Shown piece after piece: positions 14,187 through 50,882 of a stretch of DNA of 64,000 nt (its first letter is position 1; each line of letters begins with the position of its first letter). The translations under genes were made by a program, and so were the position numbers. A model generated the notes under the pieces. That model worked only from the letters and a program-made list of their open reading frames with translations. It searched no databases and had not been told where the DNA came from. The stretch lies in NCBI RefSeq assembly GCF_055900595.2, contig NZ_CM148325.1, one strand, 5' to 3'.

Positions 14187-14774
14187 TCAGTTAACTGAAT
14201 CGATCCATTGCACACTGTCGGCGGTGAGCGTAAAGGGAGTAGGGGTGCAGATCGCCAGACTTAAATTTTCAAGCTGACAATGGCTGACTGACAGCGAGGA
14301 CTGATAGGTGCTGTCTACGCTGACGATTTGCCAGGCGCTGCCGCCACGTTGTTTAACGATAGCTTCTTTGCGTGTCCAGATGCGCCAGAACATTTCCAGT
14401 TGCTGATCTGGATGCACGGCGTCCATCTCGGCATGTTCTCCGAGGCTGAACACCGCGTTCGCCAGCCAGCGCCAGTTGGCACGCGGGCGAATCACTTCGA
14501 TATCGCAGCCGACTTCGCCCTCATCGCTCAACAGTAGGGCAATATCGTCACCGCTATGGCTTAAGTTGAACCATAGCGGCGTTTCCGGCGCGAATGCAGG
14601 TTTGCCTTGTTCGCCATAGATGATCTCAGGTAGCGGGGAAAGCGTGTGTGAAAGCAATGCACGCCCCGCCAGCCAGCGTTCGCGCCGTGGACCTTGCGGT
14701 GCTTTATCGCGTAAAGCCGGTGGCAGTGGAGCTGCGCTTAAGGTCGAAACTTTCCCCAGAACTATCCGATACAT
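14187..14774 (-). CDS. acpT: Sfp-type 4'-phosphopantetheinyl transferase AcpT
   Basis: 195 aa; WTRKEA-type PPTase motif (IWTRKEAIVKQRG). Start ATG 14772..14774 lies 1 nt after the stop of the upstream island KS gene. Confidence 0.9.
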   Translation of the reverse strand: MYRIVLGKVSTLSAAPLPPALRDKAPQGPRRERWLAGRALLSHTLSPLPEIIYGEQGKPAFAPETPLWFNLSHSGDDIALLLSDEGEVGCDIEVIRPRANWRWLANAVFSLGEHAEMDAVHPDQQLEMFWRIWTRKEAIVKQRGGSAWQIVSVDSTYQSSLSVSHCQLENLSLAICTPTPFTLTADSVQWIDSVN

Positions 14775-14775
14775 A

Positions 14776-16005
14776 TCAGGGCCAACGTTTTATGATGATG
14801 GATGTATTAATGCCGCCAAAGGCAAAGTTGTTACTCTGCAAAAACTCACAATCAATCTTGCGCGCTTCATGCATGATGTAATCCAGCTCGCCACAGTTAG
14901 GGTCTGGTTTATTCAGGTTTAGCGTAGGCGCAAACCAGCCTTCTCGCATCATTTGCAGACTCATCCAGGCTTCGAGCGCGCCACAGGCACCAAGCGTATG
15001 ACCAAAATAGCTTTTCAGCGAGGAGAGCGGCACATTATCACCGTAAATGGCTGCTGTCGCCAGACTTTCTGCCATATCACCACGATCGGTCGCCGTGCCA
15101 TGCGCTGAAATATAGCCAATATCTTGTGCGCTTAACCCGGCGATTTTCAGCGATTGCTCCATACAATACTGCATGGTTTCTCGCTGTGGTTGGGTGATAT
15201 GCGCGGCGTCGCAGTTAGTGGCAAAGCCGACGATTTCTCCATAAATGGTCGCACCGCGCGCTTTGGCGTGCTCCAGTTCTTCGAGAATCAGCGTGCCTGC
15301 GCCTTCGCCAATCACCAGCCCGTCGCGGTTTTCATCGAACGGTGAAGGGGTGGTTTTCGGCGCGTCATTATGCTGGCTGGTGGCGAAAAGCGTATCAAAT
15401 ACCGCCGCTTCTGAAGGGCATAACTCTTCGGCGCCACCAGCAACCATCACCGTTTGATAACCGTGACGAATGGCTTCCCACGCGTAGCCGATCGCCTGGC
15501 TGCCGGAGGTACAGGCGCTGGAGGTTGGGATCACCCGCCCGCGCAGGCCAAAAAATAGCCCGGTATTAACGGCGGTGGTGTGCGGCATCATCTGCACATA
15601 GGTGGTGCCAGTGATGTTATTGGTGTGCTTTTCAGTCAGCATGGTGGCGAACTCGCTCACCGGACCGGTACTGCCGGTCGATGAACCGTACGCAATGCCC
15701 GTTTCGCCGCTGGTTAATATCGGATCGCCAATCAACCCTGCCTGCTCTAACGCCAGCTCGCTGGCTCGGGTCGACATTTGCGACACGCGGCCCATCGCAC
15801 GGATACGCTTACGGGTGTAGTGCTCCGGTAGCGTAAAATCATCAATCGGCGCGCCAAGCAGGGTATGCAGGCCATCGTAAACCTGCCACTCCGGCATTTT
15901 GCGCACTGCGTTCTCATACGCCAGCAAACGCGCGGAAACGTCCTGCCAGTTTTCACCAAAGGCAGTCACGCCGCCCATTCCTGTAATCACTACGCGACGT
16001 GTCAT
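14776..16005 (-). CDS. apeR: beta-ketoacyl-ACP synthase (APE cluster, ApeR-like)
   Basis: 409 aa; KS active-site Cys in SSACTSG, His motifs HGTATDRGD and GHTLGACG; ATGA overlap with the upstream reductase gene. Confidence 0.85.
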   Translation of the reverse strand: MTRRVVITGMGGVTAFGENWQDVSARLLAYENAVRKMPEWQVYDGLHTLLGAPIDDFTLPEHYTRKRIRAMGRVSQMSTRASELALEQAGLIGDPILTSGETGIAYGSSTGSTGPVSEFATMLTEKHTNNITGTTYVQMMPHTTAVNTGLFFGLRGRVIPTSSACTSGSQAIGYAWEAIRHGYQTVMVAGGAEELCPSEAAVFDTLFATSQHNDAPKTTPSPFDENRDGLVIGEGAGTLILEELEHAKARGATIYGEIVGFATNCDAAHITQPQRETMQYCMEQSLKIAGLSAQDIGYISAHGTATDRGDMAESLATAAIYGDNVPLSSLKSYFGHTLGACGALEAWMSLQMMREGWFAPTLNLNKPDPNCGELDYIMHEARKIDCEFLQSNNFAFGGINTSIIIKRWP

Positions 16006-16733
16006 AACATCCCTCCGTTGATGGAAATAACCTGGCGGGTGACGTAACCCGCAATATCAGACATTAAATAACTGGCAAGCCCGGCAACTTCTTCCGCCTG
16101 GCCCATGCGTTTCATGGGGATCATCGACATTGCCTCTTTCAGAGCGCTCTCTTCCATTTCGATCATCCCGGTATCAATAAGCCCCGGCGCGATGCAATTG
16201 ACGGTGATTTTGCGCTTCGCGAGTTCGATAGCCAGTGCTTTTGTTGCGCCGATAATTCCGGCTTTGGCAGCACTGTAGTTCACCTGGCCGCGATTGCCCA
16301 TTACGCCGGAAACCGAGGACAGCGTGATGATGCGTCCGCCCTGGCGTGCGCCGATCATCGGCATAATGCACGGCTGAATGACGTTGTAGAAACTGTCGAG
16401 GTTGGTGTGGATCACCGCATCCCAGTCGTCATCGCTTAAAGCCGGAAAAGCGGCATCGCGGGCGATCCCGGCGTTACTAACCACGCCGTACCAGGCACCG
16501 TGTTGCGCGATCTCGTGCTCCAGCACTTCCCGACACTGTTCGCGGTTTGCGACGTCGAAACTGAGCAAACGCCCGTTACCACCGTTGGCGACAATGGCAT
16601 TCAGCGTTTCCTGAGCGCCTGCGGCGTCACGGTGATAGTGAACGCCAATGTTAAAGCCGTCTGCCGCCAGTTGGCAGGCGATGGCGCGACCAATGCCTTT
16701 GCTGGCACCAGTAACCAGAACTGAACGACTCAT
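16002..16733 (-). CDS. apeQ: 3-oxoacyl-ACP reductase, SDR family (ApeQ-like)
   Basis: 243 aa; TGASKGIGRAIA dinucleotide-binding motif and YSAAK catalytic motif. Confidence 0.85.
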   Translation of the reverse strand: MSRSVLVTGASKGIGRAIACQLAADGFNIGVHYHRDAAGAQETLNAIVANGGNGRLLSFDVANREQCREVLEHEIAQHGAWYGVVSNAGIARDAAFPALSDDDWDAVIHTNLDSFYNVIQPCIMPMIGARQGGRIITLSSVSGVMGNRGQVNYSAAKAGIIGATKALAIELAKRKITVNCIAPGLIDTGMIEMEESALKEAMSMIPMKRMGQAEEVAGLASYLMSDIAGYVTRQVISINGGML

Positions 16734-17197
16734 CAGGACGCTCCTTGTTGAAACAGGGTGGTAAGTTCTTCCGCAGTCGGCTGGAAGGTGTTAATGCGGC
16801 CCGTTGCCTCGCCGTCGTTGATGCTGCACTCAAAACTGCCGAAGCGTTCATCTTGCATCAGCAGTTTGACGGTAATGGTCAGCGTCTGGCCTGCGGGCAG
16901 AATGCCAGCGGCGCAAAGCAATTCACGCGCGCCCAGTACCATCCCTAACTCAATACTGTTTTTGCCCTGCTGGTGGCGATGCCAGCCAGACCAGACGCCG
17001 ACGGTTTGCGCCATCAGTTCAAGGGCAAACCAGCCAGGGAGATTGCCGTCCGGGTCGAGAAACGGTGCCAGTACACCACTGGGCGAAACCGTCACGCGGC
17101 ACACGGCGCTGTCATCGCTGACGCTCACCACTTCTTCCAGCAGCAACATGGGCGCATCGTGGGGCAGATAAGCGCCGGGTGATAAATAGTGGCTCAC
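16733..17197 (-). CDS. apeP: hot-dog fold dehydratase subunit (ApeP-like)
   Basis: 154 aa; GTG start at 17197 overlapping the stop of the upstream KS gene; call rests on size and cluster position. Confidence 0.65.
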   Translation of the reverse strand: MSHYLSPGAYLPHDAPMLLLEEVVSVSDDSAVCRVTVSPSGVLAPFLDPDGNLPGWFALELMAQTVGVWSGWHRHQQGKNSIELGMVLGARELLCAAGILPAGQTLTITVKLLMQDERFGSFECSINDGEATGRINTFQPTAEELTTLFQQGAS

Positions 17198-18363
17198 GAA
17201 ACCCTCCCGAGCAGAATGCTGGCGTTATTGCCGCCAAAGGCGAAAGAATTGGACAGGATCACCGGACGTGCCAGCGGCTGTGGTTTTTCGATAATGCCGC
17301 ACGGTGGCAGCGTGGGATCGCGTGGCGACAGGCTGAAGTCCTGAGCGGGCAGCGGTAAATCACGCTCTAAGATCAACGTGCTAATTGCCGCCTCGGTAAT
17401 GCCCGCCGCGCCCAGCGTGTGTCCGGTCAAATGTTTGGTGGAGCTGCACGGTACGCGTTCGCCAAACAGGGCGTTAACCACCATTGATTCAATCTGGTCG
17501 TTGAGTTGTGTGGCGGTGCCGTGCAGGTTGATATAGCCCACCTCATCCGGCGTAAGCTGCGCATCGTTCAGCGCCTGGTTAATAGCGCGGATCGCCCCTT
17601 CGCCCTGCGGATGCGGGGCCGAAATATGATAAGCGTCGCTTGATTCACCAACGCCCAGTAACGCGATGGGCTGCGGTTCACGGGTCAGCAGCATTAGCCC
17701 CGCGCCTTCGCCAATGGTGATGCCCGCACGGTCACGACCGAACGGCTGACATAAGGTGGGCGACAGCGATTCGAGGCTGTGAAAACCGTTAATCGGCATC
17801 CGGCTCAGAGTGTCTGCGCCACCCACAATGGCGGCATCGACCAGCCCCGCTTCGATAAGCCTGCGCCCGCTGATCATCGCTCTGGCGCTGGAAGAGCAGG
17901 CGGTTGAAAGAGTATATGCCGGGCCGTCGAGCGCCAGCCAGTGGCTGAGAAAACGCGACGGATCGCCGAGTTCTTGTTGTGCATAGTGCCATGTGGTGCT
18001 TGGCTGCCCGTGGGTGCGCAGGTTAACGTGCGTGTCGCCTTCATGCAGGCCGGAGGTGCTGGTGCCAAGCACAATCGCGATGCGCTCGCGGCCATATTTT
18101 GCGATGGCGTCATCAACCTGCAGCTGGATCTGCGCCAGCGCCGCCAGCAGGATCTGATTGTTGCGCGAGCGGTGCGCAGCGAATTTTTCCGGGATAAGCG
18201 GAAGCTCGCCATCCACGCCAGCCAGGACCGCCTGCGGATGCCCCTGCAACCAGCCTGCGCGTGGGCGCATTCCGGGAGCAACACCGCGAGTCAGGTTGGC
18301 TGCGATCTCATCAAGATTATTTCCCAGGGCGTTGATCATGCCAACGGCGGAAATATAAATCAT
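17194..18363 (-). CDS. apeO: beta-ketoacyl-ACP synthase (ApeO-like)
   Basis: Active-site Cys in LSTACSSSA, His motifs LHGTATQ and GHTLGAAG. Start is either GTG 18372 (track) or ATG 18363. Confidence 0.8.
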   Translation of the reverse strand: MIYISAVGMINALGNNLDEIAANLTRGVAPGMRPRAGWLQGHPQAVLAGVDGELPLIPEKFAAHRSRNNQILLAALAQIQLQVDDAIAKYGRERIAIVLGTSTSGLHEGDTHVNLRTHGQPSTTWHYAQQELGDPSRFLSHWLALDGPAYTLSTACSSSARAMISGRRLIEAGLVDAAIVGGADTLSRMPINGFHSLESLSPTLCQPFGRDRAGITIGEGAGLMLLTREPQPIALLGVGESSDAYHISAPHPQGEGAIRAINQALNDAQLTPDEVGYINLHGTATQLNDQIESMVVNALFGERVPCSSTKHLTGHTLGAAGITEAAISTLILERDLPLPAQDFSLSPRDPTLPPCGIIEKPQPLARPVILSNSFAFGGNNASILLGRVS

Positions 18364-18364
18364 A

Positions 18365-18949
18365 TTAGTCACCTAAGTATTGAATGGTGATGTGGTATTT
18401 AAAGACATGCTGCTCAATGCTGATTGGCACGCGTTTTCCTTTGCGATTCAAATAGGTGATTTCCGTGACCAGTTTGCCGCTGGCGTTACGCAGTTCGCGT
18501 TTGTCACCGTTGTCACGAAGTGTCCATCCTGCGGGAAGTTGCGGTTGCCAGGCGCTAATCGGCCAGTGGCTGAGCATTACGTCAGCCAGCACCTGACTTG
18601 CTGGCGGCAACTGTGGGACGACGATGGATTGCTCGGCGCGTAGCCCTTGCGCATCGTAGGTCACCAGAAACAGACGAATGCCGACTGATGACAGTCCGGC
18701 AAGGGTGATTTTCTGGTCGTCGGCATTAAGCATCACCAACAGCGACTGGGTTTTGCCGTTGAAGCTGCCAGTCAACAGTTGTTGGGAATTGACGGCGGGT
18801 GAAATCCCCGGCGCAGGCAGCGTGATGCGTGTGCCAGGTTGCAGCCACGCCTGCGGGCGGCCTTCCTGTTCCGGTTGCGAGTGGCTACAGCCGGTGAGGA
18901 TAAGCGTAGCGGTCAGGGCGAGCGCCCGCCAGAAGGTGGGTTTGATCAT
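18365..18949 (-). CDS. apeN: DUF3261-like outer-membrane lipoprotein (ApeN-like)
   Basis: 194 aa; signal peptide with lipobox LTGC; ATGA overlap with the MMPL gene stop. Confidence 0.7.
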   Translation of the reverse strand: MIKPTFWRALALTATLILTGCSHSQPEQEGRPQAWLQPGTRITLPAPGISPAVNSQQLLTGSFNGKTQSLLVMLNADDQKITLAGLSSVGIRLFLVTYDAQGLRAEQSIVVPQLPPASQVLADVMLSHWPISAWQPQLPAGWTLRDNGDKRELRNASGKLVTEITYLNRKGKRVPISIEQHVFKYHITIQYLGD

Positions 18950-21261
18950 TTTTTTGTTCTCTTTTTATCGGGCATAGCCAGCGGCGAAAGCAGGAAGGCG
19001 GTGAAAATACCGCTCACCAGCACAATGCCAAAACTGCTGATGGCCTGAGTGGCGCTGAATACCAGCATTCCCAGCGTCAGCAAGGTGGTGAGCATTGCCA
19101 GCGTGATCGCCAGTAGGGAAGTTAACGGTGTACCGCGCGGATTACTGAAAAACAGCGTGTAGTTGATGCCGATGCCAAGCACCAGCACCAGCGCCAGCAG
19201 CGAAAAGAGATTCACCGCCTGCCCGCTCATCGCCAGCACTGCCAGACCGCAGCCCAGCGAAAGCACCGAAGGCACCAGGCTGATAAGCCCTTTGCGCCAG
19301 CCAAGGCGGGCCACTGCGCCGCAGGCAATCACTGCCAGCGCCACCAGCAACAAACCGGTTAAGACGTGGCGGTAAAGTGCGAACAATTCATCAAAAGTGT
19401 TTTTGCGATCAACCCAGGCAATGCCCTGGTAATAGCTGGCTGTTTCCTGCAACAACGCGCTACTTTTAACCCCTTCAACCGGCACCAGTACGCCGCTTGC
19501 GCCGTTTTCCAGCGTCAGCCACAGCAGACGCCAGCCTTCACTGGCGGGGCTTGCCAGCCATTCATCGACCTTCACTGGCATGGCGTTGAGATCTGGTTTC
19601 ACCGCCGTCAGCCCGGCATTTTGCAGCGCTTTTGTTACCGTCGGGGCAGACGTTTTCAGCAGATGTAAATCTTCCTCCTGCCGCACCAGGGAGTTCAGCG
19701 GAATAGTGCGGTAGTTGCTGATAAGACCGTCTTTTTTCGCTTTCTCCAGCGAGGCGGTAAATGTCTCCAGCCGCCGCAATGTTTGCTGTGGCGAATCGCC
19801 GTAAACCACAAACCATTTTTGATCGACGCTTTGTCCGGTCAGGGCGGTAATGGCTTTTTCCTGCGCCAGAATATGCTGCGGCAGCGCCTGTAACTGCGAG
19901 ATATCGTCATCGACGCGCAGCATTGACATCCCCGCCAGCGAAAACAGCGCCAGCGCGACGGGCAGACCCCGCGACAGTTTTTTATTGCGCCGCCACGCCG
20001 CCAGCCAGCGCAGCATCAGCGCCATCGCCGGAACCGGACGCACCGGCAGGCCACGGCACAGCCACGGATGCCAGAACAGAACGGTCAGACAGGAGGCGCT
20101 CAACCCGACGGCGGCAAAAATCGCCATCTGGCGAATGCCGGGGAAGGGGGCGAGCATCATAATCAGATACGCCGCCACGGTGGTGAGCAGCGCCAGTAGC
20201 AAGGCATTGCGCACTTTCGCCAGGCTTTGCCACGGCGAAACGTCATTGCCGTGCACCATCCGTTCAGTGAGGTAATAGAGCGTGTAGTCAGCGGAAATGC
20301 CGATAACGCTCATGCTCATCACCAGCGTCATCAGGTGTAATTCACCGAAAATCAACAAGGTGGCGACCGTTCCCGCCAGCGCGCCAATGCCGATGGAAAT
20401 CACGCAAAGCAGCAACGGGCGTAAAGAGCGGAACACCGCCACAATCAGTAATATCACCCCCAGCAGCGTTGCCACGCCCAGGGTTGAGATATCCTGCTTC
20501 GCCTGTTGACTGGCGTAATCGCTGTAAAATACCGTGCCGCGCGAGAGCAACTGCGCCTGCGGGTAACGCGTTTTCAGATCCTTTTCCAGCGTATTCAGGG
20601 TGGTGATGAGCTGGTGGGTTTGCTGCATATCAAACGACGATCCCGCCAGTTCTCCGTGTAGCAGATACCAGTAGTTGCCCTGGGGATCCTGCGTCACCAG
20701 CCAGCCGTCCATCAGTCGTAAACGCTGACCGTTTTTCGCCATCGCCAGCTGCGAGCCGCGCATTAACATCAGCGGATCGTTTTGCAGCTCCTTGCCGCTT
20801 ACCCCGGAGAACGCAGAATAAAGCTGGGAGAGGATCCACTGCGCCTGCGCTTCACCGCCGTTTTGTAGTCGGGCGCGAGTGTCGGGGTCAATCAGGCCGT
20901 TGCGATGCTGCCAGAAAAACGCTCCCCACGCCTGCTGGCTGGCGGCATCCATTGGCCCTTTAACATCGCCGAGCGCAGCGGATTTTTGCAGCAGCGTCAG
21001 CCATTCCTGAGCGACCAGGGGATTAGCCTCTTTACCGGGGCTGACCAGCCACACCAGTTGGCGGTCCAGACGCTGCATAAAGCCGTCATTCAGCGCCGGG
21101 GGAATATCGCCCATCGCCTGTTTGGGTAACATAGCCAGCACGCTACTGTTCAGTCGTGATTGCGGCAGCAGGATCAGCAACGCCGCTGCCATGACCAGGC
21201 AGATGATCCCCCATAACAGCGCCGGGCGTTTACTGGGCGGCAAAACGTTGGCGTTCGTCAT
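18946..21261 (-). CDS. apeM: MMPL/RND-superfamily predicted exporter (ApeM-like)
   Basis: 771 aa with two clusters of TM helices separated by soluble domains. Start 21261 overlaps apeL by 32 nt; an alternative ATG at 21192 is possible. Confidence 0.75.
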   Translation of the reverse strand: MTNANVLPPSKRPALLWGIICLVMAAALLILLPQSRLNSSVLAMLPKQAMGDIPPALNDGFMQRLDRQLVWLVSPGKEANPLVAQEWLTLLQKSAALGDVKGPMDAASQQAWGAFFWQHRNGLIDPDTRARLQNGGEAQAQWILSQLYSAFSGVSGKELQNDPLMLMRGSQLAMAKNGQRLRLMDGWLVTQDPQGNYWYLLHGELAGSSFDMQQTHQLITTLNTLEKDLKTRYPQAQLLSRGTVFYSDYASQQAKQDISTLGVATLLGVILLIVAVFRSLRPLLLCVISIGIGALAGTVATLLIFGELHLMTLVMSMSVIGISADYTLYYLTERMVHGNDVSPWQSLAKVRNALLLALLTTVAAYLIMMLAPFPGIRQMAIFAAVGLSASCLTVLFWHPWLCRGLPVRPVPAMALMLRWLAAWRRNKKLSRGLPVALALFSLAGMSMLRVDDDISQLQALPQHILAQEKAITALTGQSVDQKWFVVYGDSPQQTLRRLETFTASLEKAKKDGLISNYRTIPLNSLVRQEEDLHLLKTSAPTVTKALQNAGLTAVKPDLNAMPVKVDEWLASPASEGWRLLWLTLENGASGVLVPVEGVKSSALLQETASYYQGIAWVDRKNTFDELFALYRHVLTGLLLVALAVIACGAVARLGWRKGLISLVPSVLSLGCGLAVLAMSGQAVNLFSLLALVLVLGIGINYTLFFSNPRGTPLTSLLAITLAMLTTLLTLGMLVFSATQAISSFGIVLVSGIFTAFLLSPLAMPDKKRTKK

Positions 21262-21835
21262 CGGTCAGTTGCGCTGGCGTCAGTTGATGTTGGGTAAGAG
21301 CGATATCGGTGCGATCGCCCTGTTTATCATTAAGCTGAATGCTCTCCAGATAGGTTTGCCCGGCGAGATCGATGGTATTGAAAATTTTATCCAGCGGCGT
21401 GGTGGTCGGCGTCAGGCGCAGCGTCCAGCGGCCTTCGCCTTTGTCAGCAAATTCGACGCGGAAGTTTTGTTCCAGCACTTTGCGATCGGCCTGGAACAGC
21501 GCGCGCAGCAGGTGGTTAAACTGGAACATCTGCGGGTTATTTTCTGCCGTGATGATTTGTGGCGGCTGACCGTTGATCACCTGCACCATGCGTTTATCGT
21601 CCAGTAATAGCTGCATGGGGAACGGTGAGGTTTGATCCCACAACAGCCCCTGGTCGCGGGCGATCAACATCTGCCCCTGCGATCGCAGCGGTTGCGGCAG
21701 ATCTTTAATCGTCCGGGTTTGATCGAAATGGGCGCGGATCACCGGCTGTTCGGTAAAGCGTTGCTGAAGATCGTCCAGGGTCAGGGCGCTCACAAACGGG
21801 CTAATCAGCAGCGCCAGCAGCGGTAAAAATTTCAT
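21230..21835 (-). CDS. apeL: LolA-like outer-membrane lipoprotein carrier protein (ApeL-like)
   Basis: 201 aa; cleavable signal peptide (MKFLPLLALLISPFVSA); LolA-like size. Confidence 0.7.
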   Translation of the reverse strand: MKFLPLLALLISPFVSALTLDDLQQRFTEQPVIRAHFDQTRTIKDLPQPLRSQGQMLIARDQGLLWDQTSPFPMQLLLDDKRMVQVINGQPPQIITAENNPQMFQFNHLLRALFQADRKVLEQNFRVEFADKGEGRWTLRLTPTTTPLDKIFNTIDLAGQTYLESIQLNDKQGDRTDIALTQHQLTPAQLTDDERQRFAAQ

Positions 21836-22254
21836 GGTTTGACTCCCATGCGTTCAAACAGAATATCGGGGCTGACAAAGCACAGTTCGCGGCTTTGCTC
21901 GTCGACCGCGACCTGAATGGTGTATCCGGTGGTGGCGCGTTTGCCCGTTTCGGCATCGAAAATCTGATAGCCAATTCGCAGGCGGTTTTCGAACTCTTCG
22001 ATATGCGCACGCACGCGGATGCGTTGCTCAAAGGTGAGGGCGTGGCGATATTTCACCCGCGCATCGACCACTGGCCACAAATAACCCGACTCTTTCATCT
22101 GCCGATAGCCGTAATTGAACTGGTTGAGCAGCGCCTCGCGGGCCACTTCAAAGTAGCGAAAATAGTTACCGTGCCAGGCCACGCCCATCATATCGACGTC
22201 GTGAAATGGAATGATCAGCTCGACTTCAGCGGTAAATCGGGGATCGTTAAGCAC
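21832..22254 (-). CDS. apeK: 4HBT/YbgC-type hot-dog thioesterase (ApeK-like)
   Basis: 140 aa; HDVDMMGVAWHGNYFRYFE thioesterase motif; GTG start. Confidence 0.75.
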   Translation of the reverse strand: MLNDPRFTAEVELIIPFHDVDMMGVAWHGNYFRYFEVAREALLNQFNYGYRQMKESGYLWPVVDARVKYRHALTFEQRIRVRAHIEEFENRLRIGYQIFDAETGKRATTGYTIQVAVDEQSRELCFVSPDILFERMGVKP

Positions 22255-22257: not shown

Positions 22258-23934
22258 TTACTCCTTGTCCTGGACTTCCGGCAGTTGCCAGAAATCGAAA
22301 AAATTAAACCAGTCGAGGGGCGACTGGAGCGCGTGATGTTCCAGACGCGCGGCGTAATGATCGATAGCGTTTTGCAGCGCCTGCTGGCGTTCGCCACGCG
22401 GCAACAGCAGCGGGTCGGCAAAGGTTTCGCAGTTAATATGCAGCTTGCCGTGCTGGCGCAGGGCGAAAATCAGATTCACCGGGCAGCGCAAAATAGACGC
22501 GAGAATAAACGGCCCCTGTGGGAAGGGCGCAGGCTGGCCCATAAACGAACTCCAGCAGACGCGCCAGTCGCCGCCGCGTTGCGGGTTGATGGCGATGCGG
22601 TCACCAACAATCGCCACCCATTCGCCGTTATCCAGCTTCTCTTTTAGCAGGATGGCGGTGTCCGGGCCGATATCCGTCACCGGCATCAGGTTAATGCCTG
22701 CCTGAGGAGCCATCTCCTGCATTATCTGTTTAAAGCGTTGGGCGTTTTCGCTAAACACCAGCGCGTTAATGGTTTTGTAGCCCTGAATTTTTGCCAGCGC
22801 CCGGCACACTTCCACATCGCCAAGATGCGAGGCCAGCAGCAATTTGCCGCGCGGATCGCTGACGTTAAGTGCCGCTTCTGCGCCTGGTGCAAACAGCACA
22901 TCACGCCCGAGTTGCAGCTCGCCGCGCCAACTGGCGATTTTGTCGAGCATGGCGTTGCCGAAACGTAGAAAGTGCTGATAGCTGTTGAGTTTTGCTGCCT
23001 GTGGTTGATGCTGGCGCACACGGGCGAGCCAGTCTTGCGACGCTTTGCGCGCCCGGCTGGCGGTGAGCCAGTAGACGCCCACCACCGGATAAAGCAGCGC
23101 GGTAAACGCCGTTCTTCCCAGCAGGCGCCAGACCAGCAGCATCAGGCGCATTCCCCATAATCCTTTCACTTCGCTCTGCCGCGCCCAGTGGCTGGAAGAG
23201 TGGCGCATCAGCAGCGAAGGAATACGCGGCAACATGCCGAAAAACAGGCGCGTGTGCATGAGCGAGATGCGGACGTTATCTTTCAGGGCATCAAAGTGCG
23301 AAAGCCCGTCCAGCGGATAGGTGACGCGGGTCGGCACGAAATAGCTGGTGTTTCCCTGCCAGTAGAGGCGCACCATCACTTCGGTGTCGAAATCCATCCG
23401 CTTGCCGATGGTGGCGTGTTTTGCCAGTTGCAGCGTTGGCGCAACCGGATAAACGCGAAAGCCGCACATGCTGTCTTTCAGTTGCAGGGAGAGCGTTTCG
23501 ACCCATACCCAGATGTGGGTGACCCAGCGCCCGTACAGCCGTGAGCGGGGGATGGAGTCATCGTAAATTGGCTGGCCGGAGATCAGTGCCGCAGGGTGTT
23601 GTTCAGCGAGTGCCAGCAGTTTGGGGATATCTTCAATCGCGTGCTGACCGTCGGCATCTACCTGTACCGCATGGCTGAACCCCGCGTCTGCCGCTGCCTG
23701 TAAGCCGCGCATTACCGCCGCGCCTTTGCCTGCGTTTTCTGCCAGGCGAATTAATGTCACGCCAGGCTGTTCGGCAACCAGATTATCCAGTTGCTGTTGC
23801 GTGGCGGCATCGCTGCCGTCATCCACCACAATACAGGGCAGATTAAATGGCTTAAGACGCGCCAGCACGCCCGGCATCATTGCGCCGTGGTTGTAGCAGG
23901 GGATCAACACGCAGGGAGAAAAGTTTACCGACAT
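22258..23934 (-). CDS. apeJ: family-2 glycosyltransferase fused to a C-terminal acyltransferase-like domain (ApeJ-like)
   Basis: 558 aa; N-terminal GT-A fold signature (CYNHG...VVDDGSDA), longer C-terminal domain. Confidence 0.7.
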   Translation of the reverse strand: MSVNFSPCVLIPCYNHGAMMPGVLARLKPFNLPCIVVDDGSDAATQQQLDNLVAEQPGVTLIRLAENAGKGAAVMRGLQAAADAGFSHAVQVDADGQHAIEDIPKLLALAEQHPAALISGQPIYDDSIPRSRLYGRWVTHIWVWVETLSLQLKDSMCGFRVYPVAPTLQLAKHATIGKRMDFDTEVMVRLYWQGNTSYFVPTRVTYPLDGLSHFDALKDNVRISLMHTRLFFGMLPRIPSLLMRHSSSHWARQSEVKGLWGMRLMLLVWRLLGRTAFTALLYPVVGVYWLTASRARKASQDWLARVRQHQPQAAKLNSYQHFLRFGNAMLDKIASWRGELQLGRDVLFAPGAEAALNVSDPRGKLLLASHLGDVEVCRALAKIQGYKTINALVFSENAQRFKQIMQEMAPQAGINLMPVTDIGPDTAILLKEKLDNGEWVAIVGDRIAINPQRGGDWRVCWSSFMGQPAPFPQGPFILASILRCPVNLIFALRQHGKLHINCETFADPLLLPRGERQQALQNAIDHYAARLEHHALQSPLDWFNFFDFWQLPEVQDKE

Positions 23935-24278
23935 AGGCGGATCTTCCCGCTACTGGCGGTGTGGCGGGCGTCACCGTCGTGACGCTGATAACTAAAGCTC
24001 AGAATCTGGCGTTCTTCCTGCCAGCTAAGCGTGAGTGTGACGCGGTTATCCGGCAGCAATGGAGCCTGGAATTTGATGTTCTGAATGGAGTGAAAACGCC
24101 AACCGGGCGCGAGCAGGGCAAGCGCGTAACTCATCGCCCAGTCGATTTGCGCCACGCCAGGGAGTAATGGTTGTACGGCAAAATGACCGCGAAACCAGAA
24201 CAGATCTGCCCTGAGATGCAAAACAATCTCAAGGTGATTCACTTGTGCCTGATGGCGCTCGATTTCATGGGGCTTCAT
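23925..24278 (-). CDS. apeI: FabZ-like 3-hydroxyacyl-ACP dehydratase (ApeI-like)
   Basis: Hot-dog dehydratase motif FRGHFAVQPLLPGV. ATG at 24278 preferred over the track GTG at 24308, which would overlap apeH by 44 nt. Confidence 0.75.
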   Translation of the reverse strand: MKPHEIERHQAQVNHLEIVLHLRADLFWFRGHFAVQPLLPGVAQIDWAMSYALALLAPGWRFHSIQNIKFQAPLLPDNRVTLTLSWQEERQILSFSYQRHDGDARHTASSGKIRLCR

Positions 24279-25626
24279 GAAATAACTCCTGTAATTGCGC
24301 ATAGACACGCTTGTTCATACTGTTTACTGGCATTTCATCAATAACGCGCCAGTAACGCGGAATAGCAACTGGCTCCAGCGTCGGGCGCAGTAATCGCCGC
24401 CAGGCCATTTCCTGGCTGTGCCCGCCGCCGTTTTGCCATTGCAGGCGAGCTTCGTCATCCAGCACCAGCAAAACGCCAATACTCTGACGTCCGCCGCGCG
24501 TAACGGGAACTGCCGCCGCCTCGCGAATACCGTCCAGCGCCAGCAGACGTTGTTCTACTTCCTGGAGTGAAATACGTTTTTCTTCAATCTTAACGATGCG
24601 CCCACGACGCCCCATCAGATGGAACTGACCGTCCTGGCTAAACTGCAAGAGATCATCGAGTAACAGGCCGTTATCTTCCGCTATCAGCGGTGAAAAGAGG
24701 CGAAATGCTTCACCTTCGGCCTGGAACTGCACACCTGGGAAGGGTAGCCAGCGGCGTTGCTCTTGTTCGCGGTAACGCCAGGCGATGACGCCGGTTTCCG
24801 TGCTGCCGTAGATTTCATCAGGCCAGACGCGCAGCCAGCTCGCGGTATATTGTACGTCCTGCCACGGCAGCTCACCGCCAGCAGAGAGAAGCACCTGAAC
24901 GGGCGGCGGAGAAAGCTGGGTATCCAGCCGTTTCAAAAATGCCGGGCTGCTGATGAAGATATAGCGATGCTGGTGACTCAATGCGGCAAACTGTTCGACA
25001 TACCAGAGCATGGCGGCGTGCAGCGGTAATCCCAGCGCCATTGGCAGGAAAACGCGAAAAGTCAGGCCGTACAAATGCTGCGGCAATACGGAACCGACGA
25101 CACGACATCCGGCAAGACGTGCGCCTAATCGTTCAGCCAGCAGTTCTGCTTCACGGTCCAGCAAATGAACAGGTTTAATTACCCGCTTTGGCTGCCCCGT
25201 AGAACCGGAGGTAAACAGCTCGATATAAGCGTCTGGCGCTATAGCGGCAAAGGTGAATGATTGTGTCGCGACTTGTGGGGAGCTTGCTACCAACAGCAAT
25301 GAACCTTGCCAGTTAAGTTCGCTGTCGCTAAGCACACCATCGAACAGTTCACGTTGCTCGTTAAGCTGGATGACGCGGTTATGCCCCGGAAGCACCGGTG
25401 TTTTTCCGGCGTGTAGCGTGGCGAGCAGGGCAACGATAAACAGATAGCAGTCCTCAAAGCACAGCGCCCAGCGTTCACCTGGTTGTTGCTGTAAACGGCA
25501 GATAAGTTGCGAGACATCGTGACGCAAATCGCCCAGCGTCCAGGTGCTTTCGTCCAGCCACGCAATGGGCGTGTCATCAGGGCGTGGCGCAGTCAGCCAG
25601 CGTGCAAGCGGTAAGGTCTGCTTCAT
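24265..25626 (-). CDS. apeH: AMP-dependent acyl/aryl ligase (adenylate-forming; ApeH-like)
   Basis: Adenylation P-loop FTSGSTGQPKRV. ATG at 25624..25626 forms an ATGA overlap with the apeG stop; the track start 25665 is an extension. Confidence 0.8.
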   Translation of the reverse strand: MKQTLPLARWLTAPRPDDTPIAWLDESTWTLGDLRHDVSQLICRLQQQPGERWALCFEDCYLFIVALLATLHAGKTPVLPGHNRVIQLNEQRELFDGVLSDSELNWQGSLLLVASSPQVATQSFTFAAIAPDAYIELFTSGSTGQPKRVIKPVHLLDREAELLAERLGARLAGCRVVGSVLPQHLYGLTFRVFLPMALGLPLHAAMLWYVEQFAALSHQHRYIFISSPAFLKRLDTQLSPPPVQVLLSAGGELPWQDVQYTASWLRVWPDEIYGSTETGVIAWRYREQEQRRWLPFPGVQFQAEGEAFRLFSPLIAEDNGLLLDDLLQFSQDGQFHLMGRRGRIVKIEEKRISLQEVEQRLLALDGIREAAAVPVTRGGRQSIGVLLVLDDEARLQWQNGGGHSQEMAWRRLLRPTLEPVAIPRYWRVIDEMPVNSMNKRVYAQLQELFHEAP

Positions 25627-26204
25627 GAGCGATCTCTTTTCATCACCTGACGGCGCACCAGCCATTCACCAGCCATTAACGTCCCCATCAACAAATAAGC
25701 AATCATGCCGTTCCAGGCAGTCCATAACGACATATCGCCATGCAGCGCGGTAAAGAGGGCAATTCCGCCGTTGATGATGAAAAAGCCGCACCAGATTTGC
25801 GTGACGTGGCGGGTATAGCGCACGCCCTTTTCCGGGAGGTCTGGCTCCTGCAAACGCGCCAGCCGCTCAACAATTGGCATTGCCGACCACAGCGAACCGC
25901 CAAAAACCGCCAGCATTACCGCGTTAACCACTACCGGGTAAAACAGCAGTAGCTGGTGCGTTTTCAACAGAAAGCTGGCGACACACAAGGCGATACCCAC
26001 GACAGCGACGATTTGTGTGACGGCTTGTAGCGGCTCGGCCTGGCAACGAGTCTGGCGCAGGCGCAATAAAAGCAGCAGCGCCATCAGCGGCAACAGCCAG
26101 TGCAGGCCGTTATGTGCCAAACCAAGCCAAATCACAAACGGCCAGGCGAGCAGTAATAATCCGGTCAGCAGTTTAATAATCGGTAGCGAGCGAATGCCCG
26201 ACAT
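25623..26204 (-). CDS. apeG: polytopic inner-membrane protein of unknown function (ApeG-like)
   Basis: 193 aa, about five hydrophobic helices; ATG 26202..26204. Confidence 0.65.
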   Translation of the reverse strand: MSGIRSLPIIKLLTGLLLLAWPFVIWLGLAHNGLHWLLPLMALLLLLRLRQTRCQAEPLQAVTQIVAVVGIALCVASFLLKTHQLLLFYPVVVNAVMLAVFGGSLWSAMPIVERLARLQEPDLPEKGVRYTRHVTQIWCGFFIINGGIALFTALHGDMSLWTAWNGMIAYLLMGTLMAGEWLVRRQVMKRDRS

Positions 26205-26208: not shown

Positions 26209-26460
26209 TCAGGCTTCTTGTAGCAGGCGTTCTACGGCCTCTACGACATCCTGGACTGTACGCACTGCTTTAAACTCTTCCGGCTTGATTTTCTTACCGG
26301 TTTTCTTTTGCAGATGCACAATCATGTCAACGGCGTCGATGCTGTCCAGTTCCAGATCTTCGTACAGGCGCGCTTCAGGTTTGATGTCCTGCGGATCGAT
26401 TTCAAACAGCTTAACCAGCAGAGCTGAGACTTCCTGATAGACGGTTTGTTGTTCTGTCAT
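26209..26460 (-). CDS. apeF: acyl carrier protein (ApeF-like)
   Basis: Pantetheine attachment motif LELDSIDAVDM. ATG at 26460 (MTEQQ...) or the track GTG at 26475. Confidence 0.8.
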   Translation of the reverse strand: MTEQQTVYQEVSALLVKLFEIDPQDIKPEARLYEDLELDSIDAVDMIVHLQKKTGKKIKPEEFKAVRTVQDVVEAVERLLQEA

Positions 26461-26471
26461 GATGGCTTTCC

Positions 26472-26729
26472 TCACGCACGTTGTGCAGCAATAAAAGAGG
26501 CCAGAGTGGCGACAGAGAAAAAGTGCTGACGCATCTCTTCACTTTCCGCAGAAAGTACAACGCCATATTCATTTTTTACTGCCAGCCCCAGTTCCAGGGC
26601 ATCGATGGAATCCAGCCCTAAACCGTCGCCGAACAGCGGCGCATCGGTCTCGATATCATCAGGAGTCAACTCGTCCAGATTGAGGGTGCTGATGATGAGG
26701 TTTTTAATTTCCAGATAAAGCGCTTGCAT
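26472..26729 (-). CDS. apeE: acyl carrier protein (ApeE-like)
   Basis: 85 aa; LGLDSIDALEL motif; ATG 26727..26729. Confidence 0.8.
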   Translation of the reverse strand: MQALYLEIKNLIISTLNLDELTPDDIETDAPLFGDGLGLDSIDALELGLAVKNEYGVVLSAESEEMRQHFFSVATLASFIAAQRA

Positions 26730-27525
26730 TATTTATTCCTGAGAGAGGTAAACAACCTTGTTGTAATTGAAGCAAAAGATGCCGGTTTAACTGCCTTGCT
26801 GCCAGCGCCGGTTCTTGTGAAGTTGCAACGTAAAATTTATTGATTTCAACCCGATCATGGACTTCAACCGTAAAAAACGGCCTGGCAGGTGGAACGTCAT
26901 ACCATTTACTTTGTTTATCCAGCAGATGCTCGCTACAGCCGATCGTCACGATGCGTAAATCGCTGGCACAGCGCACGGCAATATTCGCCGCCCCGCGCTG
27001 CAGCGTCATTTTTTCACCGGGCTTCGTTCGCGTGCCTTCGGGGAAAATCAAGATAGTGTCGCCCTGTGCCAGTCGCTGTTGGCAGCGGGGTAACAGGGTT
27101 TCAGCTTCGCTGTTGATTAAATAATCTGCCGCCCGCACAACGCCGCCAAGAAAAGGATTTTTTAACAGCGCGCTTTTCACCAGGCAGTCAGTTTCTGGCA
27201 TGACTGACGCCAGCAGTACGTAATCGATAAGCGTGGGATGATTAGCTACGACGAGGCAACCGCGTTCCTGACGTAAAATTTCAGCGCCATCAATACGATA
27301 ATCCAGCACGCCAAGCCCTTTCGCGACAGTTAAAAACAGGCGAAAACTGGCGGCAATGCTGCGACGCGCCAAACGACGGCGGCGGGAAGTATCCCACACC
27401 AAAACTAACAATATGTTAAACCACACGACAGAAAGCAGCAGGCCGCCGAGACCAAACAGGGCAAAACACAACCCGGTCATAACCAGTCGCCATGTCCATT
27501 CCAGGCGTGACATCAGCTTACTCAT
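26704..27525 (-). CDS. apeD: PlsC-like lysophospholipid acyltransferase (ApeD-like)
   Basis: 273 aa; N-terminal TM anchor; HX4D acyltransferase motif NHPTLID; ATGA overlap with the apeC stop. Confidence 0.75.
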   Translation of the reverse strand: MSKLMSRLEWTWRLVMTGLCFALFGLGGLLLSVVWFNILLVLVWDTSRRRRLARRSIAASFRLFLTVAKGLGVLDYRIDGAEILRQERGCLVVANHPTLIDYVLLASVMPETDCLVKSALLKNPFLGGVVRAADYLINSEAETLLPRCQQRLAQGDTILIFPEGTRTKPGEKMTLQRGAANIAVRCASDLRIVTIGCSEHLLDKQSKWYDVPPARPFFTVEVHDRVEINKFYVATSQEPALAARQLNRHLLLQLQQGCLPLSGINNASALSGN

Positions 27526-28244
27526 CTACGGCTCCAGCGCCACTGTACGCGCTCACCAGGAAGTGAAAAAGCATCTGAATTTTGTAAATAGTGCTGTAAA
27601 AACAACATGCTTTGCGGCAGTGTTGTTTCATTGCCCGCAATGGCTGGCTGTGTTTCACATTGCCACTCATCGCCAGCTTCAATCACCAGCGCAACAGCAT
27701 ATGGCCAGGTCGGCATTTCTGCTGGGAGCTGCGGATGATAGAACTCAGGTAGAAAGCCATCAAAATCGACCATCAACACGCGCTGGTATCCCGCTTGTAA
27801 CAGGCTAAGCACTTCACACAAACCTTGCTGGAAAGTGTCGCGACCAGCCGAAAGCGATGAGGAAACGATCGGTTGTTTGGCCGCAATGGTCAGGTTACCC
27901 ACGGAAGAGTTGTGTACGGAGAGCGCGAAGTCCGTCGGAGAGAGCGCCTGTTCGGTTGCCAGTGCATGAACAATGCGGTAATTGCGCTCCAGCTCGCCAT
28001 GACGACTGGTATACAAAACGGCGTCTGGCTGATGGTGGCGTAGCATTGCCAGACCGCACTCCACGGCCAGTTTGCTGCCAGAACTGAGACGGCGGGCGGT
28101 CATCATTGGCAGTTCACTTAATTTTGCCAACGGTGCGGCAGGGTCAACCGCCCACGGCTGGCGCGACCATGCTTGCCATTGCTGGGCTTCGCTAAGTCCA
28201 GGCGCCAGTGCCTTCCAGTCGGTAATATTTAATGTAAATTTCAT
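27522..28244 (-). CDS. apeC: truncated KS-like protein lacking the active-site Cys motif; chain-length-factor-like partner (ApeC-like)
   Basis: About 240 aa with no TACSS-type motif. ATG at 28244 (MKFTLNI...) preferred over the track TTG at 28268. Confidence 0.6.
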   Translation of the reverse strand: MKFTLNITDWKALAPGLSEAQQWQAWSRQPWAVDPAAPLAKLSELPMMTARRLSSGSKLAVECGLAMLRHHQPDAVLYTSRHGELERNYRIVHALATEQALSPTDFALSVHNSSVGNLTIAAKQPIVSSSLSAGRDTFQQGLCEVLSLLQAGYQRVLMVDFDGFLPEFYHPQLPAEMPTWPYAVALVIEAGDEWQCETQPAIAGNETTLPQSMLFLQHYLQNSDAFSLPGERVQWRWSRR

Positions 28245-28284
28245 CAACGCGCGCCCGCGGTAAACCAAAATTATTAAGTGACGA

Positions 28285-29343
28285 TTATTTCTTTTGGCAT
28301 ATCAATAATGTATGCCCAACGCCTAAATTATCGTGGCGCTCTGCTACCTGAAATCCTGCTTTATTCAGATAGTCGTAAAATTTCTCTGCGCTATAGAAAC
28401 GGCTGTTACCGTTTGCCATGCAGGTAAAATAAAGTGAGGACGCGTTCAGGCTAAATGATGCTGCTTCAAACCGCTGCGCATCCCAGAACAACTCCATGAT
28501 GCAAACTTTTGCGCCAGGCTTCATTACGCTGGCGATTTTGCTGAGTATGCTAATTATTTGTTCGGGTGAAAAACAGTCTAAAAATTGGCTCATCCACCAG
28601 ATATCAGCCTCGCCCGGTAATGGGGCATCGCTTAGCATATCCACCGCATGGAAATCTATGCGATCAGAAAAACCTGCATTCGCGATATTTTCTTTCGCTA
28701 GTACGATTTGTTGTGGCAGATCTAATAACGTCACGGCGATGTTTTCATTGTATTTGCAGCAACGCAAAGCCCACTTACCCGTATTGCCGCCTACATCGTA
28801 CAATGTTGTGGGGTTGTTGGCGAATACATAAGGCAGTGCGGCGTTAAATGCGCCATCTGAATAGTAATGATCAAACGCAAACCAGCTTTCACGAGCGGCA
28901 TCTGGTAATTGTGAAAGTGCGGGATATATCGTCGACCAGTCGCCAAATACTTTTAACCCGGACGGTTTTCCTTCATTGAGTGAATCGGCGAGGAAGAAGA
29001 GCCCCTGATAGCAGACATCCTGGGTGAAATCCATATTCACGCGAGTCATAGTGTCATGCAGGAGGTAATGACCGATTTTCGCCAGGTAATACATTCCCTC
29101 TTTACAGGTAATAATTCGCCCGCTTAAGCCCATATCTAACAGAACGCTGGCCGCATATTCGTTGATATGGCTATGTTCGGTGATATCAGCCAGCGTTGCG
29201 CCATGTTTGCCTTGCCGATCCAGATATGAAAGTACACCCGCATTACGTAGGCAGAGAGCTGTTTGAAAAAGCATGGGGGCAAAGGCAATGCGTTGAGCTT
29301 CGGTAATCGCATCCAGTGCGCTAAGAGAATCCTGTTCGTACAT
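28285..29343 (-). CDS. apeB: SAM-dependent methyltransferase, probably O-methyltransferase (ApeB-like)
   Basis: SAM-binding motif LYDVGGNTG; ATG at 29343 (MYEQ...) or the track GTG at 29352. Confidence 0.75.
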   Translation of the reverse strand: MYEQDSLSALDAITEAQRIAFAPMLFQTALCLRNAGVLSYLDRQGKHGATLADITEHSHINEYAASVLLDMGLSGRIITCKEGMYYLAKIGHYLLHDTMTRVNMDFTQDVCYQGLFFLADSLNEGKPSGLKVFGDWSTIYPALSQLPDAARESWFAFDHYYSDGAFNAALPYVFANNPTTLYDVGGNTGKWALRCCKYNENIAVTLLDLPQQIVLAKENIANAGFSDRIDFHAVDMLSDAPLPGEADIWWMSQFLDCFSPEQIISILSKIASVMKPGAKVCIMELFWDAQRFEAASFSLNASSLYFTCMANGNSRFYSAEKFYDYLNKAGFQVAERHDNLGVGHTLLICQKK

Positions 29344-29411
29344 GTTGGGCACAACCTGTTAAGAGGGAATTAAATTATTATCGGACCGAAGCGGCCCGAC
29401 TTTAGGGGAAA

Positions 29412-29801
29412 TTACAAATCTGCGCCAGCCGACAAATTCAGTTGAATATCTTTGTCGAGATTGCGGACCCAGCGATTATAGTTTTTATGAATTTGTCCGC
29501 CTGATGCTTGCAGGTTCTGACTATTTTCATAATTGATATCGTAGCTGGATGCCGTGTAGTTAATGCGAATTTCGGCTGAATGATCGCGTGACTGTTGACG
29601 TGCTTTAATTACGCCTTGTCCGGCTTCGGACATAATCCATTTGCGTTCAACGCCAGCTTTCAGAATCGCTTTTTTCACTTGTTCCTGGGTATGACCAGCG
29701 CTGACGGTTGAGTGAACCTGATCAATTGGCGCAGTACGCGCGCAACCCGCTAAAGCACCCACAACAGCAATAGCCGCAAACCATTTCATGTAATGTCTCA
29801 T
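29412..29801 (-). CDS. small lipoprotein of unknown function at the island edge
   Basis: 129 aa; signal peptide and lipobox (AVVGALAGC); start ATG at 29801 or 29789; candidate hairpin terminator just downstream. Confidence 0.55.
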   Translation of the reverse strand: MRHYMKWFAAIAVVGALAGCARTAPIDQVHSTVSAGHTQEQVKKAILKAGVERKWIMSEAGQGVIKARQQSRDHSAEIRINYTASSYDINYENSQNLQASGGQIHKNYNRWVRNLDKDIQLNLSAGADL

Positions 29802-30180: not shown

Positions 30181-31230
30181 TTAACCCGGTAACCGACTTT
30201 TCGGTCTGCCCGGCCCCAGTAAGATCGCCAGTTTGCTACCGCCTTTGGTGGTTTCCATCCAGATTTTACACACGCTGGTTAATGGTACCGAAAGTAGCAT
30301 CCCTACCGGGCCGAGCAGCCATCCCCAAATTAACAATGAAAGAAATACCACCATGGTGGACATCCCCAGGCGATGGCCCATCATCCGTGGTTCTAAAATA
30401 TTGCCGATGACCATATGGACCACTAAAAACAATGCGCCGACCAGAATACATTCGTAAACGCCATTAAACAGCAGCACCTGAATCATTGGCGGTACGGCGG
30501 AAATTACCGCGCCGATATTGGGCACGTAGTTGAGCAAAAACGCCAGTACTGCCCACATCAGCGCAAACTGTACGCCCATTAGCGCCAGCCCCAGCCAGAC
30601 GATTACGCCTGTCCATAAACTTAGCAGTGTCTTCAATGCAAGATAGTGTGAAACACCTTTTAAGGCGCGGTGTAGTCCGGCGATGTGAATCTGTGGATTA
30701 TTCAACGCAAAACGCATTTTGTAGGGGACGTGGCGTACTTCAAACAGCATGAAAACTACGGTCATCACCAGCAAAAGCACGCTCGCCATTGCCCCGGAAA
30801 GCCCGGTCATTAGCGCCGTGGTGAAGGTAACCACTTTTTCCGAGTCCATCCGCTGCAGCATTCGCTCCGGCGACATATGCAAATTAAGAAAAGGCAACAT
30901 CTCCTGCAATTTAAAAAGTTTGCGCGTCAGCTCCTTATTAAACTTCGGCAGCATAGAGATGAATTCGTTAAACGATGCCGCCAGTACGCCGACCAGCGCA
31001 GTAAGCGCAATCAGCATCACCACGACCACAATTGTAATGGCAACGGGACGCTGAACACCGCGACGAATAAACCAGGTGACCAGTGGGTTGAGGACGATGG
31101 CAAAAAACAGCGCCAGTAACAGCTGCACAATGATATCTGCCGCTGCGTGAATGCCCGCGAGGATCACTACCAGCGAGGCCAGCTTGAGCAGAATGTGCAT
31201 GCCCGTTTTATCGGGTTGAGGGGTTTCCAT
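30181..31230 (-). CDS. yhhT: AI-2E family transporter YhhT
   Basis: In-frame ATG at 31228..31230 gives 349 aa (METPQPDKTG...); polytopic membrane protein. The track ORF is a 27-codon extension. Confidence 0.85.
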   Translation of the reverse strand: METPQPDKTGMHILLKLASLVVILAGIHAAADIIVQLLLALFFAIVLNPLVTWFIRRGVQRPVAITIVVVVMLIALTALVGVLAASFNEFISMLPKFNKELTRKLFKLQEMLPFLNLHMSPERMLQRMDSEKVVTFTTALMTGLSGAMASVLLLVMTVVFMLFEVRHVPYKMRFALNNPQIHIAGLHRALKGVSHYLALKTLLSLWTGVIVWLGLALMGVQFALMWAVLAFLLNYVPNIGAVISAVPPMIQVLLFNGVYECILVGALFLVVHMVIGNILEPRMMGHRLGMSTMVVFLSLLIWGWLLGPVGMLLSVPLTSVCKIWMETTKGGSKLAILLGPGRPKSRLPG

Positions 31231-50168: not shown

Positions 50169-50882
50169 ATGGAAAAAGTCATGTTGTCCTTTGACAAAGT
50201 CAGCGCCCACTACGGCAAAATCCAGGCGCTGCATGAGGTGAGCCTGCATATCAATCAGGGCGAGATTGTCACCCTCATTGGCGCGAACGGCGCGGGGAAA
50301 ACCACCTTGCTCGGCACATTATGCGGCGACCCGCGCGCCACCAGCGGGCGAATTGTGTTTGATGATAAAGACATTACCGACTGGCAGACAGCGAAAATCA
50401 TGCGCGAAGCGGTGGCGATTGTTCCGGAAGGGCGTCGTGTTTTCTCGCGGATGACGGTGGAAGAGAACCTGGCGATGGGCGGCTTTTTTGCCGAACGCGA
50501 CCAGTTCCAGGAACGCATAAAGTGGGTCTATGAACTGTTTCCACGTCTGCATGAGCGCCGTGTTCAGCGGGCAGGCACCATGTCCGGCGGTGAACAGCAG
50601 ATGCTGGCGATTGGTCGCGCTTTGATGAGTAACCCACGTTTGCTATTGCTTGATGAACCCTCGCTCGGACTGGCACCGATTATCATCCAGCAAATTTTCG
50701 ACACCATCGAGCAACTGCGCGAGCAGGGGATGACTATCTTCCTCGTCGAGCAGAACGCCAACCAGGCGCTAAAGCTGGCGGATCGCGGCTACGTGCTGGA
50801 AAATGGTCATGTCGTGCTTTCCGATACTGGCGACGCGCTGCTGGCAAACGAAGCGGTGAGAAGTGCGTATTTAGGCGGGTAA
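50169..50882 (+). CDS. livF: branched-chain amino acid ABC ATPase LivF
   Basis: ATG at 50169 gives 237 aa (MEKVMLSFDKV...); Walker A GANGAGKTT. Confidence 0.9.
   Translation: MEKVMLSFDKVSAHYGKIQALHEVSLHINQGEIVTLIGANGAGKTTLLGTLCGDPRATSGRIVFDDKDITDWQTAKIMREAVAIVPEGRRVFSRMTVEENLAMGGFFAERDQFQERIKWVYELFPRLHERRVQRAGTMSGGEQQMLAIGRALMSNPRLLLLDEPSLGLAPIIIQQIFDTIEQLREQGMTIFLVEQNANQALKLADRGYVLENGHVVLSDTGDALLANEAVRSAYLGG

Follow-up and report, generated by a model that had tools for sequence, protein, structure and literature searches.

The gene acpT begins one nucleotide after the stop codon of apeR, the last gene of an aryl polyene (APE) island, in the window, that is, the whole stretch of 64,000 nucleotides that was analysed. 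This apeR-acpT arrangement is confirmed here as real, and it is ordinary and already known (De Lay & Cronan 2006; Johnston et al. 2021). On the minus strand, reading of the open reading frames and of the sequence places the TGA of apeR at 14776..14778, a single spacer base at 14775 and the ATG of acpT at 14772..14774, which are exactly the coordinates of the stop-1 nt-start arrangement described in an earlier note on this DNA. Read 5' to 3', the junction is ...ATC ATC ATA AAA CGT TGG CCC TGA T ATG TAT CGG ATA GTT..., and the two genes that meet there are the following:

14187..14774, minus strand: acpT, Sfp-type 4'-phosphopantetheinyl transferase (PPTase) of 195 aa, NF007676 equivalog
14776..16005, minus strand: apeR-like beta-ketoacyl-ACP synthase of 409 aa, from NF006587 and the PGAP annotation of an identical strain

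The product of apeR, the final biosynthetic gene of the cluster, is a FabF-like ketosynthase that matches the PRK09116 equivalog NF006587 with 780 bits, and this match, together with the PGAP annotation, bears out that the gene directly before acpT is the terminal ketosynthase (KS) gene. AcpT matches the NCBIfam equivalog NF007676 with 394.4 bits against a cut-off of 174, with residues 1-195 falling on model positions 1-195. Because the model aligns end to end, the annotated start of acpT is the start of the family, and the residues M1-Y2 are invariant among orthologues. With 195 aa, AcpT is short for the Sfp-type family. It keeps the motifs GKP, WFNLSHS, GCDIE and WTRKEAIVK, and the two elements by which Sfp-type enzymes were recognised, a Mg-binding GxD(I/L)E and a W/F-x-x-KE-A-x-x-K motif, are present as GCDIE (residues 89-93) and WTRKEAIVK (residues 133-141), both nearly invariant among 77 orthologues.

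Between yhhT and acpT lies a complete APE cluster of 18 genes, apeA to apeR, all in the same orientation, and the DNA specific to the island spans approximately 14795 to 30180. The features that surround the junction are given below:

14114..14141, no strand assigned: perfect match to GTATGA-N16-TCATAC, which we take to be the NikR operator consensus, with 0 matches expected by chance
16002..16733, minus strand: apeQ, ketoreductase FabG2 (family search and annotation)
16733..17197, minus strand: apeP, dehydratase (family search and annotation)
17194..18363, minus strand: apeO, ketosynthase (family search and annotation)
18365..22254, minus strand: apeN (DUF3261), apeM (MMPL transporter), apeL (LolA-like) and apeK (thioesterase)
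22258..26204, minus strand: apeJ (glycosyltransferase), apeI (dehydratase), apeH (adenylating enzyme) and apeG (membrane protein)
26209..26460, minus strand: apeF-like acyl carrier protein (ACP), 83 aa, serine motif ELDSID
26472..26729, minus strand: apeE-like ACP, 85 aa, serine motif GLDSID
26704..29789, minus strand: apeD (acyltransferase), apeC (chain-length factor), apeB (methyltransferase) and apeA
30181..31230, minus strand: yhhT, a backbone gene that borders the island on its left

The gene content is that of an APE cluster, with a KS-CLF pair (ApeO/ApeC), a second KS (ApeR), a KR and the dehydratases ApeI and ApeP, together with tandem ACPs, an adenylating enzyme, a methyltransferase and LolA/MMPL export genes. 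The two carrier proteins lie where they had been claimed to lie, at 26209..26729, each with a DSI(D) serine motif. The dog isolate E. coli Z0117EC0005 is 100% identical to the window over a probe of positions 14000..16100 and over a 3.3-kb island probe, and the family searches of the window agree with the NCBI annotation of its island. That annotation comprises a small hypothetical protein, a methyltransferase, a chain-length factor, a lysophospholipid acyltransferase, two carrier proteins, a membrane protein, an adenylating enzyme, an ApeI-family dehydratase, a glycosyltransferase, a thioesterase, a LolA-like protein, an MMPL transporter, a DUF3261 protein, a ketosynthase, an ApeP-family dehydratase, FabG2 and the terminal ketosynthase; the ApeI- and ApeP-family dehydratases are so named by PGAP in this identical strain. 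The same strain carries an annotated tetratricopeptide-repeat gene between ugpB and livF, at approximately 50650..51400 of the window (L091:12245-12991), and we know of no gene at that place in K-12.

From apeC to apeR, 13 of the 17 junctions are overlaps or gaps of 4 nt or less, and the spacing of acpT therefore fits the packing of the operon. On its other side, acpT is separated from nikA by 110 nt, within which the NikR-type site lies 46 nt past the acpT stop. Because this operator sits in the acpT-nikA spacer, the nik operon is a separate regulatory unit, and membership of acpT in the nik operon is ruled out by the same 110-nt spacer with its operator. Between acpT and nikA, no hairpin resembling a terminator was seen.

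The junction is conserved within the species and far beyond it. The island adjacent to acpT was found in 569 of 5426 complete E. coli genomes, and a 121-nt junction probe is matched in one piece, with at least 80% coverage, by all 569, the sampled rows having a coverage of 98-100% and an identity of 98.3-100%. A scan across species with an AcpT alignment as seed and one genome per species returned 80 loci, which include Escherichia, Citrobacter, Salmonella, Raoultella, Klebsiella, Kosakonia and Enterobacter and also cover Leclercia, Lelliottia, Kluyvera, Pluralibacter, Cedecea and others. An intact apeR lies directly upstream of acpT in 53 of these 80 Enterobacteriaceae species, with a spacer of 1 nt (24 species), 2 nt (28 species) or 3 nt (1 species), and overlap of the stop and the start was seen in none of the 53. 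The stop codon and the spacer bases vary among them. Three further loci carry damaged islands, two with a frameshifted apeR and one with an internal deletion of the island. The arrangement of the junction is constrained and not accidental.

The closest known counterpart is O-island 138 of O157:H7 EDL933, which shares with the window the yhhT-island-acpT-nikA locus, the gene order and the 1-nt apeR-acpT junction. In O157:H7 strain 8368, the annotated KS ends at 360 and acpT starts at 362, giving the same spacer of 1 nt. By the order of its genes and by its junction, the window holds the intact yhhT-APE island-acpT arrangement of O157:H7. The O157:H7 island DNA is 95-96% identical to that of the window, and the window comes from a different lineage, carrying the AcpT allele WP_032303967.1 where O157:H7 has WP_000285784.1.

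The CFT073-type APE_Ec cluster (Cimermancic 2014; PMC8253772) has the same 18 genes, apeA to apeR, in the same order as the window. The copy in ATCC 25922 has 81% DNA identity to the window. Unlike the window island, this cluster sits elsewhere, in an island with IS remnants, and the homology of the window to it ends exactly at the apeR stop; it has been described as lacking a dedicated PPTase (Johnston et al. 2021, PMC8253772). The CFT073-type cluster makes aryl polyene pigment (PMC8253772), and the cluster in the window, to which it is 81% identical, is predicted to do so as well. Among the APE-bearing E. coli genomes, approximately 255 of 824 carry this second kind of island, with 81% nucleotide identity and at other chromosomal sites. 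Examples are found in ATCC 25922 (L003, 11729-26750) and OkiPb01692 (L084), among IS and pseudogene debris, with the homology breaking between CCCTGA and GTTATAC at the apeR stop, and both kinds of island occur together in at most seven genomes. No PPTase gene or acpT remnant was found downstream of or near these second-kind islands; a hidden acpT or remnant was also looked for at E. coli clusters that do not adjoin acpT, and there was none.

Outside the enterobacteria, A. baumannii APE clusters have homologous ApeE/ApeF tandem carriers and ApeR/ApeO/ApeC ketosynthases (PMC12624758). The six distant clusters of ApeR type that were sampled (45-60% identity), unlike the window, have no PPTase gene beside the terminal KS. 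The location of acpT is like that of the genes for EntD (enterobactin) and ClbA (colibactin), which are Sfp-type PPTase genes located together with the carrier proteins that they serve, clbA lying within the colibactin cluster (PMC9125672). Unlike genes of this cluster-encoded type, acpT persists and stays conserved after the loss of the cluster.

That loss has left a recognisable trace in front of acpT:

14776..14794, minus strand: apeR 3' end that is kept in island-less E. coli (deletion scar), with BLAST homology starting at 14794

The match of island-less E. coli genomes to the window is confined to positions from 14794 downward, and this breakpoint is common to all genomes sampled. A direct comparison shows the 16 nt AAACGTTGGCCCTGAT (14775..14790) to be identical in the island-less allele and 19 of the 20 nt upstream of the ATG to agree. 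In the island-less strain KW21, 54 nt separate yhhT from acpT, and the last 16 nt of this spacer are AAACGTTGGCCCTGAT, which comprises the last four codons of apeR, the stop and the spacer base. Given that island-less genomes keep the 3' end of apeR directly before acpT, the contiguity of apeR and acpT is ancestral and the island-less state arose by deletion, which agrees with the title of De Lay & Cronan (Mol Microbiol 2006, PMID 16824108).

In Escherichia, Salmonella and Citrobacter, 16-27 nt of apeR remain before the acpT ATG; Enterobacter/Leclercia loci (L036, L041, L059, L065) have kept 42-49 codons. The spacer between yhhT and acpT is 51-63 nt long and homologous among island-less Escherichia, Salmonella and Citrobacter (L002:3967-4020; L005-L008, L013-L028). 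A homologous left part of this spacer (GGCGACAAGTGATAC...) followed by the 16-27 nt scar is found in E. albertii, E. whittamii, Salmonella and several Citrobacter; this sharing of spacer and scar across genera means that the deletion allele is old. One deletion allele thus appears to be older than these three genera and, in Escherichia and Citrobacter, to occur beside alleles that carry the island. In island-less E. coli, the filler GGCGACAAGTGATACGATACGCACTTTCATTTTCC (L002:3967-4004) sits between the yhhT stop and the apeR scar. When its first 24 nt were searched with up to 3 mismatches, the filler of approximately 34 nt (GGCGACAAGTGATACGATACGCAC...) had no match in the window, so that the deletion was more than a simple excision, unless the filler has diverged in the meantime.

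Other lineages have other breakpoints. Three loci (L062, L067, L081) share a different spacer, one (L044) has yet another, and one (L071) has a partial internal deletion of the island; some of these breakpoints have no recognisable apeR scar. Beyond the shared allele there are at least three further unrelated island breakpoints, with acpT left intact at all of them. Since these breakpoints are unrelated, at least four independent losses of the island have taken place, and acpT was spared each time.

With respect to function, AcpT modifies both carrier proteins of the O157:H7 island with 4'-phosphopantetheine, in vitro and in vivo, according to De Lay & Cronan (2006) as quoted in PMC8253772, and the link between AcpT and the carrier proteins was restated for ApeE/ApeF by Johnston et al. 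2021 (PMC8253772). The synteny across 53 species gives independent support for this link. AcpT is the cognate PPTase of the carrier proteins of the island, a conclusion that, going by the quoted work, was already published in 2006 and is not new. Nonetheless, adjacency by itself is no proof of a requirement for AcpT. In the work of Johnston et al. (PMC8253772), the K-12 host had acpT and the deletion covered the 18 ape genes alone, and our literature search found no acpT deletion scored for APE production.

The earlier note had gone one step further and called AcpT probably the dedicated PPTase of the cluster. Its core, that AcpT is the cognate enzyme, stands on the published modification as quoted and on the synteny; the word dedicated is an overstatement, because 5425 of 5426 E. 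coli genomes have acpT, compared with 824 that have an APE cluster of any kind. This PPTase gene does not occur only where the cluster is, as 24 of the 80 species also have acpT without the island, and neither does the cluster family generally carry a PPTase gene, as seen in the second-kind E. coli islands and in all six distant clusters. Where the island is missing, the gene has not decayed. Between island-less species, the dN/dS of acpT is 0.056-0.107 at dS 0.2-0.6, with a median of 0.10 over 128 pairs, and the median between island-bearing species is 0.19, so the constraint in the absence of the island is no weaker. Of the 24 island-less species, 23 have an AcpT with undamaged catalytic motifs, and the remaining one (L081) has D91S and E137G. 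The AcpT protein WP_000285784.1 is common to O157:H7 strain 8368 and the island-less strain KW21. It is clear that acpT is under purifying selection in island-less lineages. Because acpT is retained and conserved without the island, and clusters elsewhere do without a PPTase gene, something besides the island also keeps AcpT.

What that may be can be put forward only tentatively. We consider it possible, at somewhat less than an even chance, that AcpT has a second, catalysis-dependent job apart from the adjacent APE island, which would explain the survival of at least four deletions, the dN/dS of approximately 0.06-0.11 and the intact motifs in 23 of 24 species. The substrate of such a job could be a carrier protein encoded elsewhere, including those of the CFT073-type APE islands, served in trans. 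Alternatively, the second function could be tied to the reported interaction of AcpT with YejM/LpxC, in which suppression is independent of catalysis and LpxC levels are raised (PMC7240159, PMC7773988).

The retention of acpT also bears on a more radical reading, namely that AcpT belongs to the backbone and mainly does something else, its service to the APE carrier proteins being incidental; AcpS or EntD would then suffice for the cluster. The near-universal presence of acpT in E. coli against the 824 genomes with any APE cluster, its escape from at least four independent island deletions and its constraint and intact motifs in island-less species would all be expected of such an enzyme, as would the second-kind and distant clusters without a PPTase gene and the finding that A. 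baumannii AcpS makes holo-ApeE/ApeF in vitro (PMC12624758). What makes this reading improbable in our judgement is that AcpT modifies the carrier proteins of O157:H7 both in vitro and in vivo, as quoted in PMC8253772, and that acpT lies directly after an intact apeR at all 53 island loci found by the AcpT-seeded scan, the three damaged-island loci being set aside. Moreover, the island-less genomes of species outside E. coli may hold APE clusters elsewhere, which weakens the argument from retention. To our knowledge, no other substrate of AcpT exists in K-12, which also speaks against a separate main role.

As to expression, the translation of acpT is likely coupled to that of apeR. The stop and the start lie within a few nucleotides of each other with no terminator between them, and acpT has no effective ribosome-binding site of its own: pairing of the 20 nt before its start with the anti-Shine-Dalgarno sequence yields -1.5 kcal/mol, compared with -10.8, -8.3 and -10.0 kcal/mol for apeP, apeQ and apeR. 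The same holds in the family, with a median of -2.4 for acpT in the 53 species, only 7 of which reach about -7. It is this near lack of a Shine-Dalgarno sequence that makes coupling plausible, and the 1-nt spacer, the weak Shine-Dalgarno sequence and the conserved spacing of 1-3 nt all fit with it, as judged from the nucleotide sequence. The classic signature of coupling, an ATGA/TGATG overlap, is absent from the apeR-acpT spacing. Coupling of the type in which upstream translation melts a structure was considered and set aside, given that folding of the junction RNA yielded no unusual structure for it to melt (z = +1.1).

The alternative is that acpT is expressed independently, from a promoter inside apeR and with a weak initiation of its own, the 1-nt spacing being mere compact packing. 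The earlier note had stated that there is no separate promoter space; this is right for the intergenic space, which is 1 nt, and goes too far for apeR itself, where an internal promoter may lie. With a simple consensus scan, which is insensitive, no promoter- or terminator-like site was found between apeR and acpT, and no promoter-like site on the acpT strand in the 3.4 kb of 13900..17300, which counts against such a promoter; near the junction and upstream of apeA, the counts of promoter and terminator consensus matches were no higher than in shuffled sequence. It is nonetheless the case that acpT must be expressed without apeR in approximately 90% of E. coli, which have no island, and that it is expressed in island-less strains with just 16-20 nt of apeR before it and yhhT 54 nt upstream. 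The lack of stop/start overlap in 53 of 53 species and of an occluding RNA structure at the junction would also suit independent expression. It is harder to reconcile with a spacing that keeps to 1-3 nt from genus to genus even though the stop codon and the spacer base differ, and with a Shine-Dalgarno sequence that is very weak in most species. On balance, we regard independent expression as unlikely, although with a better case than the backbone reading of AcpT.

Coupled expression within the operon is the reading that we prefer, and the explanation of acpT as a whole, which joins operon, PPTase and deletion, appears to us probable. In it, acpT would close the APE operon of the yhhT-acpT locus as its nineteenth cistron, transcribed from a cluster promoter presumed to lie upstream of apeA. 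Ribosomes that terminate at the apeR stop would restart 4 nt further on, and this termination-reinitiation would be the main route of acpT translation. The level would presumably be low and catalytic, owing to the almost complete lack of a Shine-Dalgarno sequence. The AcpT so produced would turn both apo carrier proteins, the homologues of ApeE and ApeF, into their holo forms. Island-less strains, e.g., K-12, descend from an old deletion that spared acpT and that took approximately 15.4 kb, from the yhhT stop to the last few codons of apeR.

The arrangement accounts for the presence in K-12 of a PPTase without a known substrate. A widespread pigment-lipid pathway probably owes the activation of its carrier proteins to AcpT, and in the literature the APE pathway has been linked to protection from oxidative stress and to the formation of biofilms. 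What is added here to the published picture is that the apeR-acpT junction is ancestral and family-wide, that the island was lost several times, and that acpT was conserved each time. The retained acpT thereby bears on the old question of the role that AcpT plays in the approximately 85% of E. coli that are without an APE cluster.
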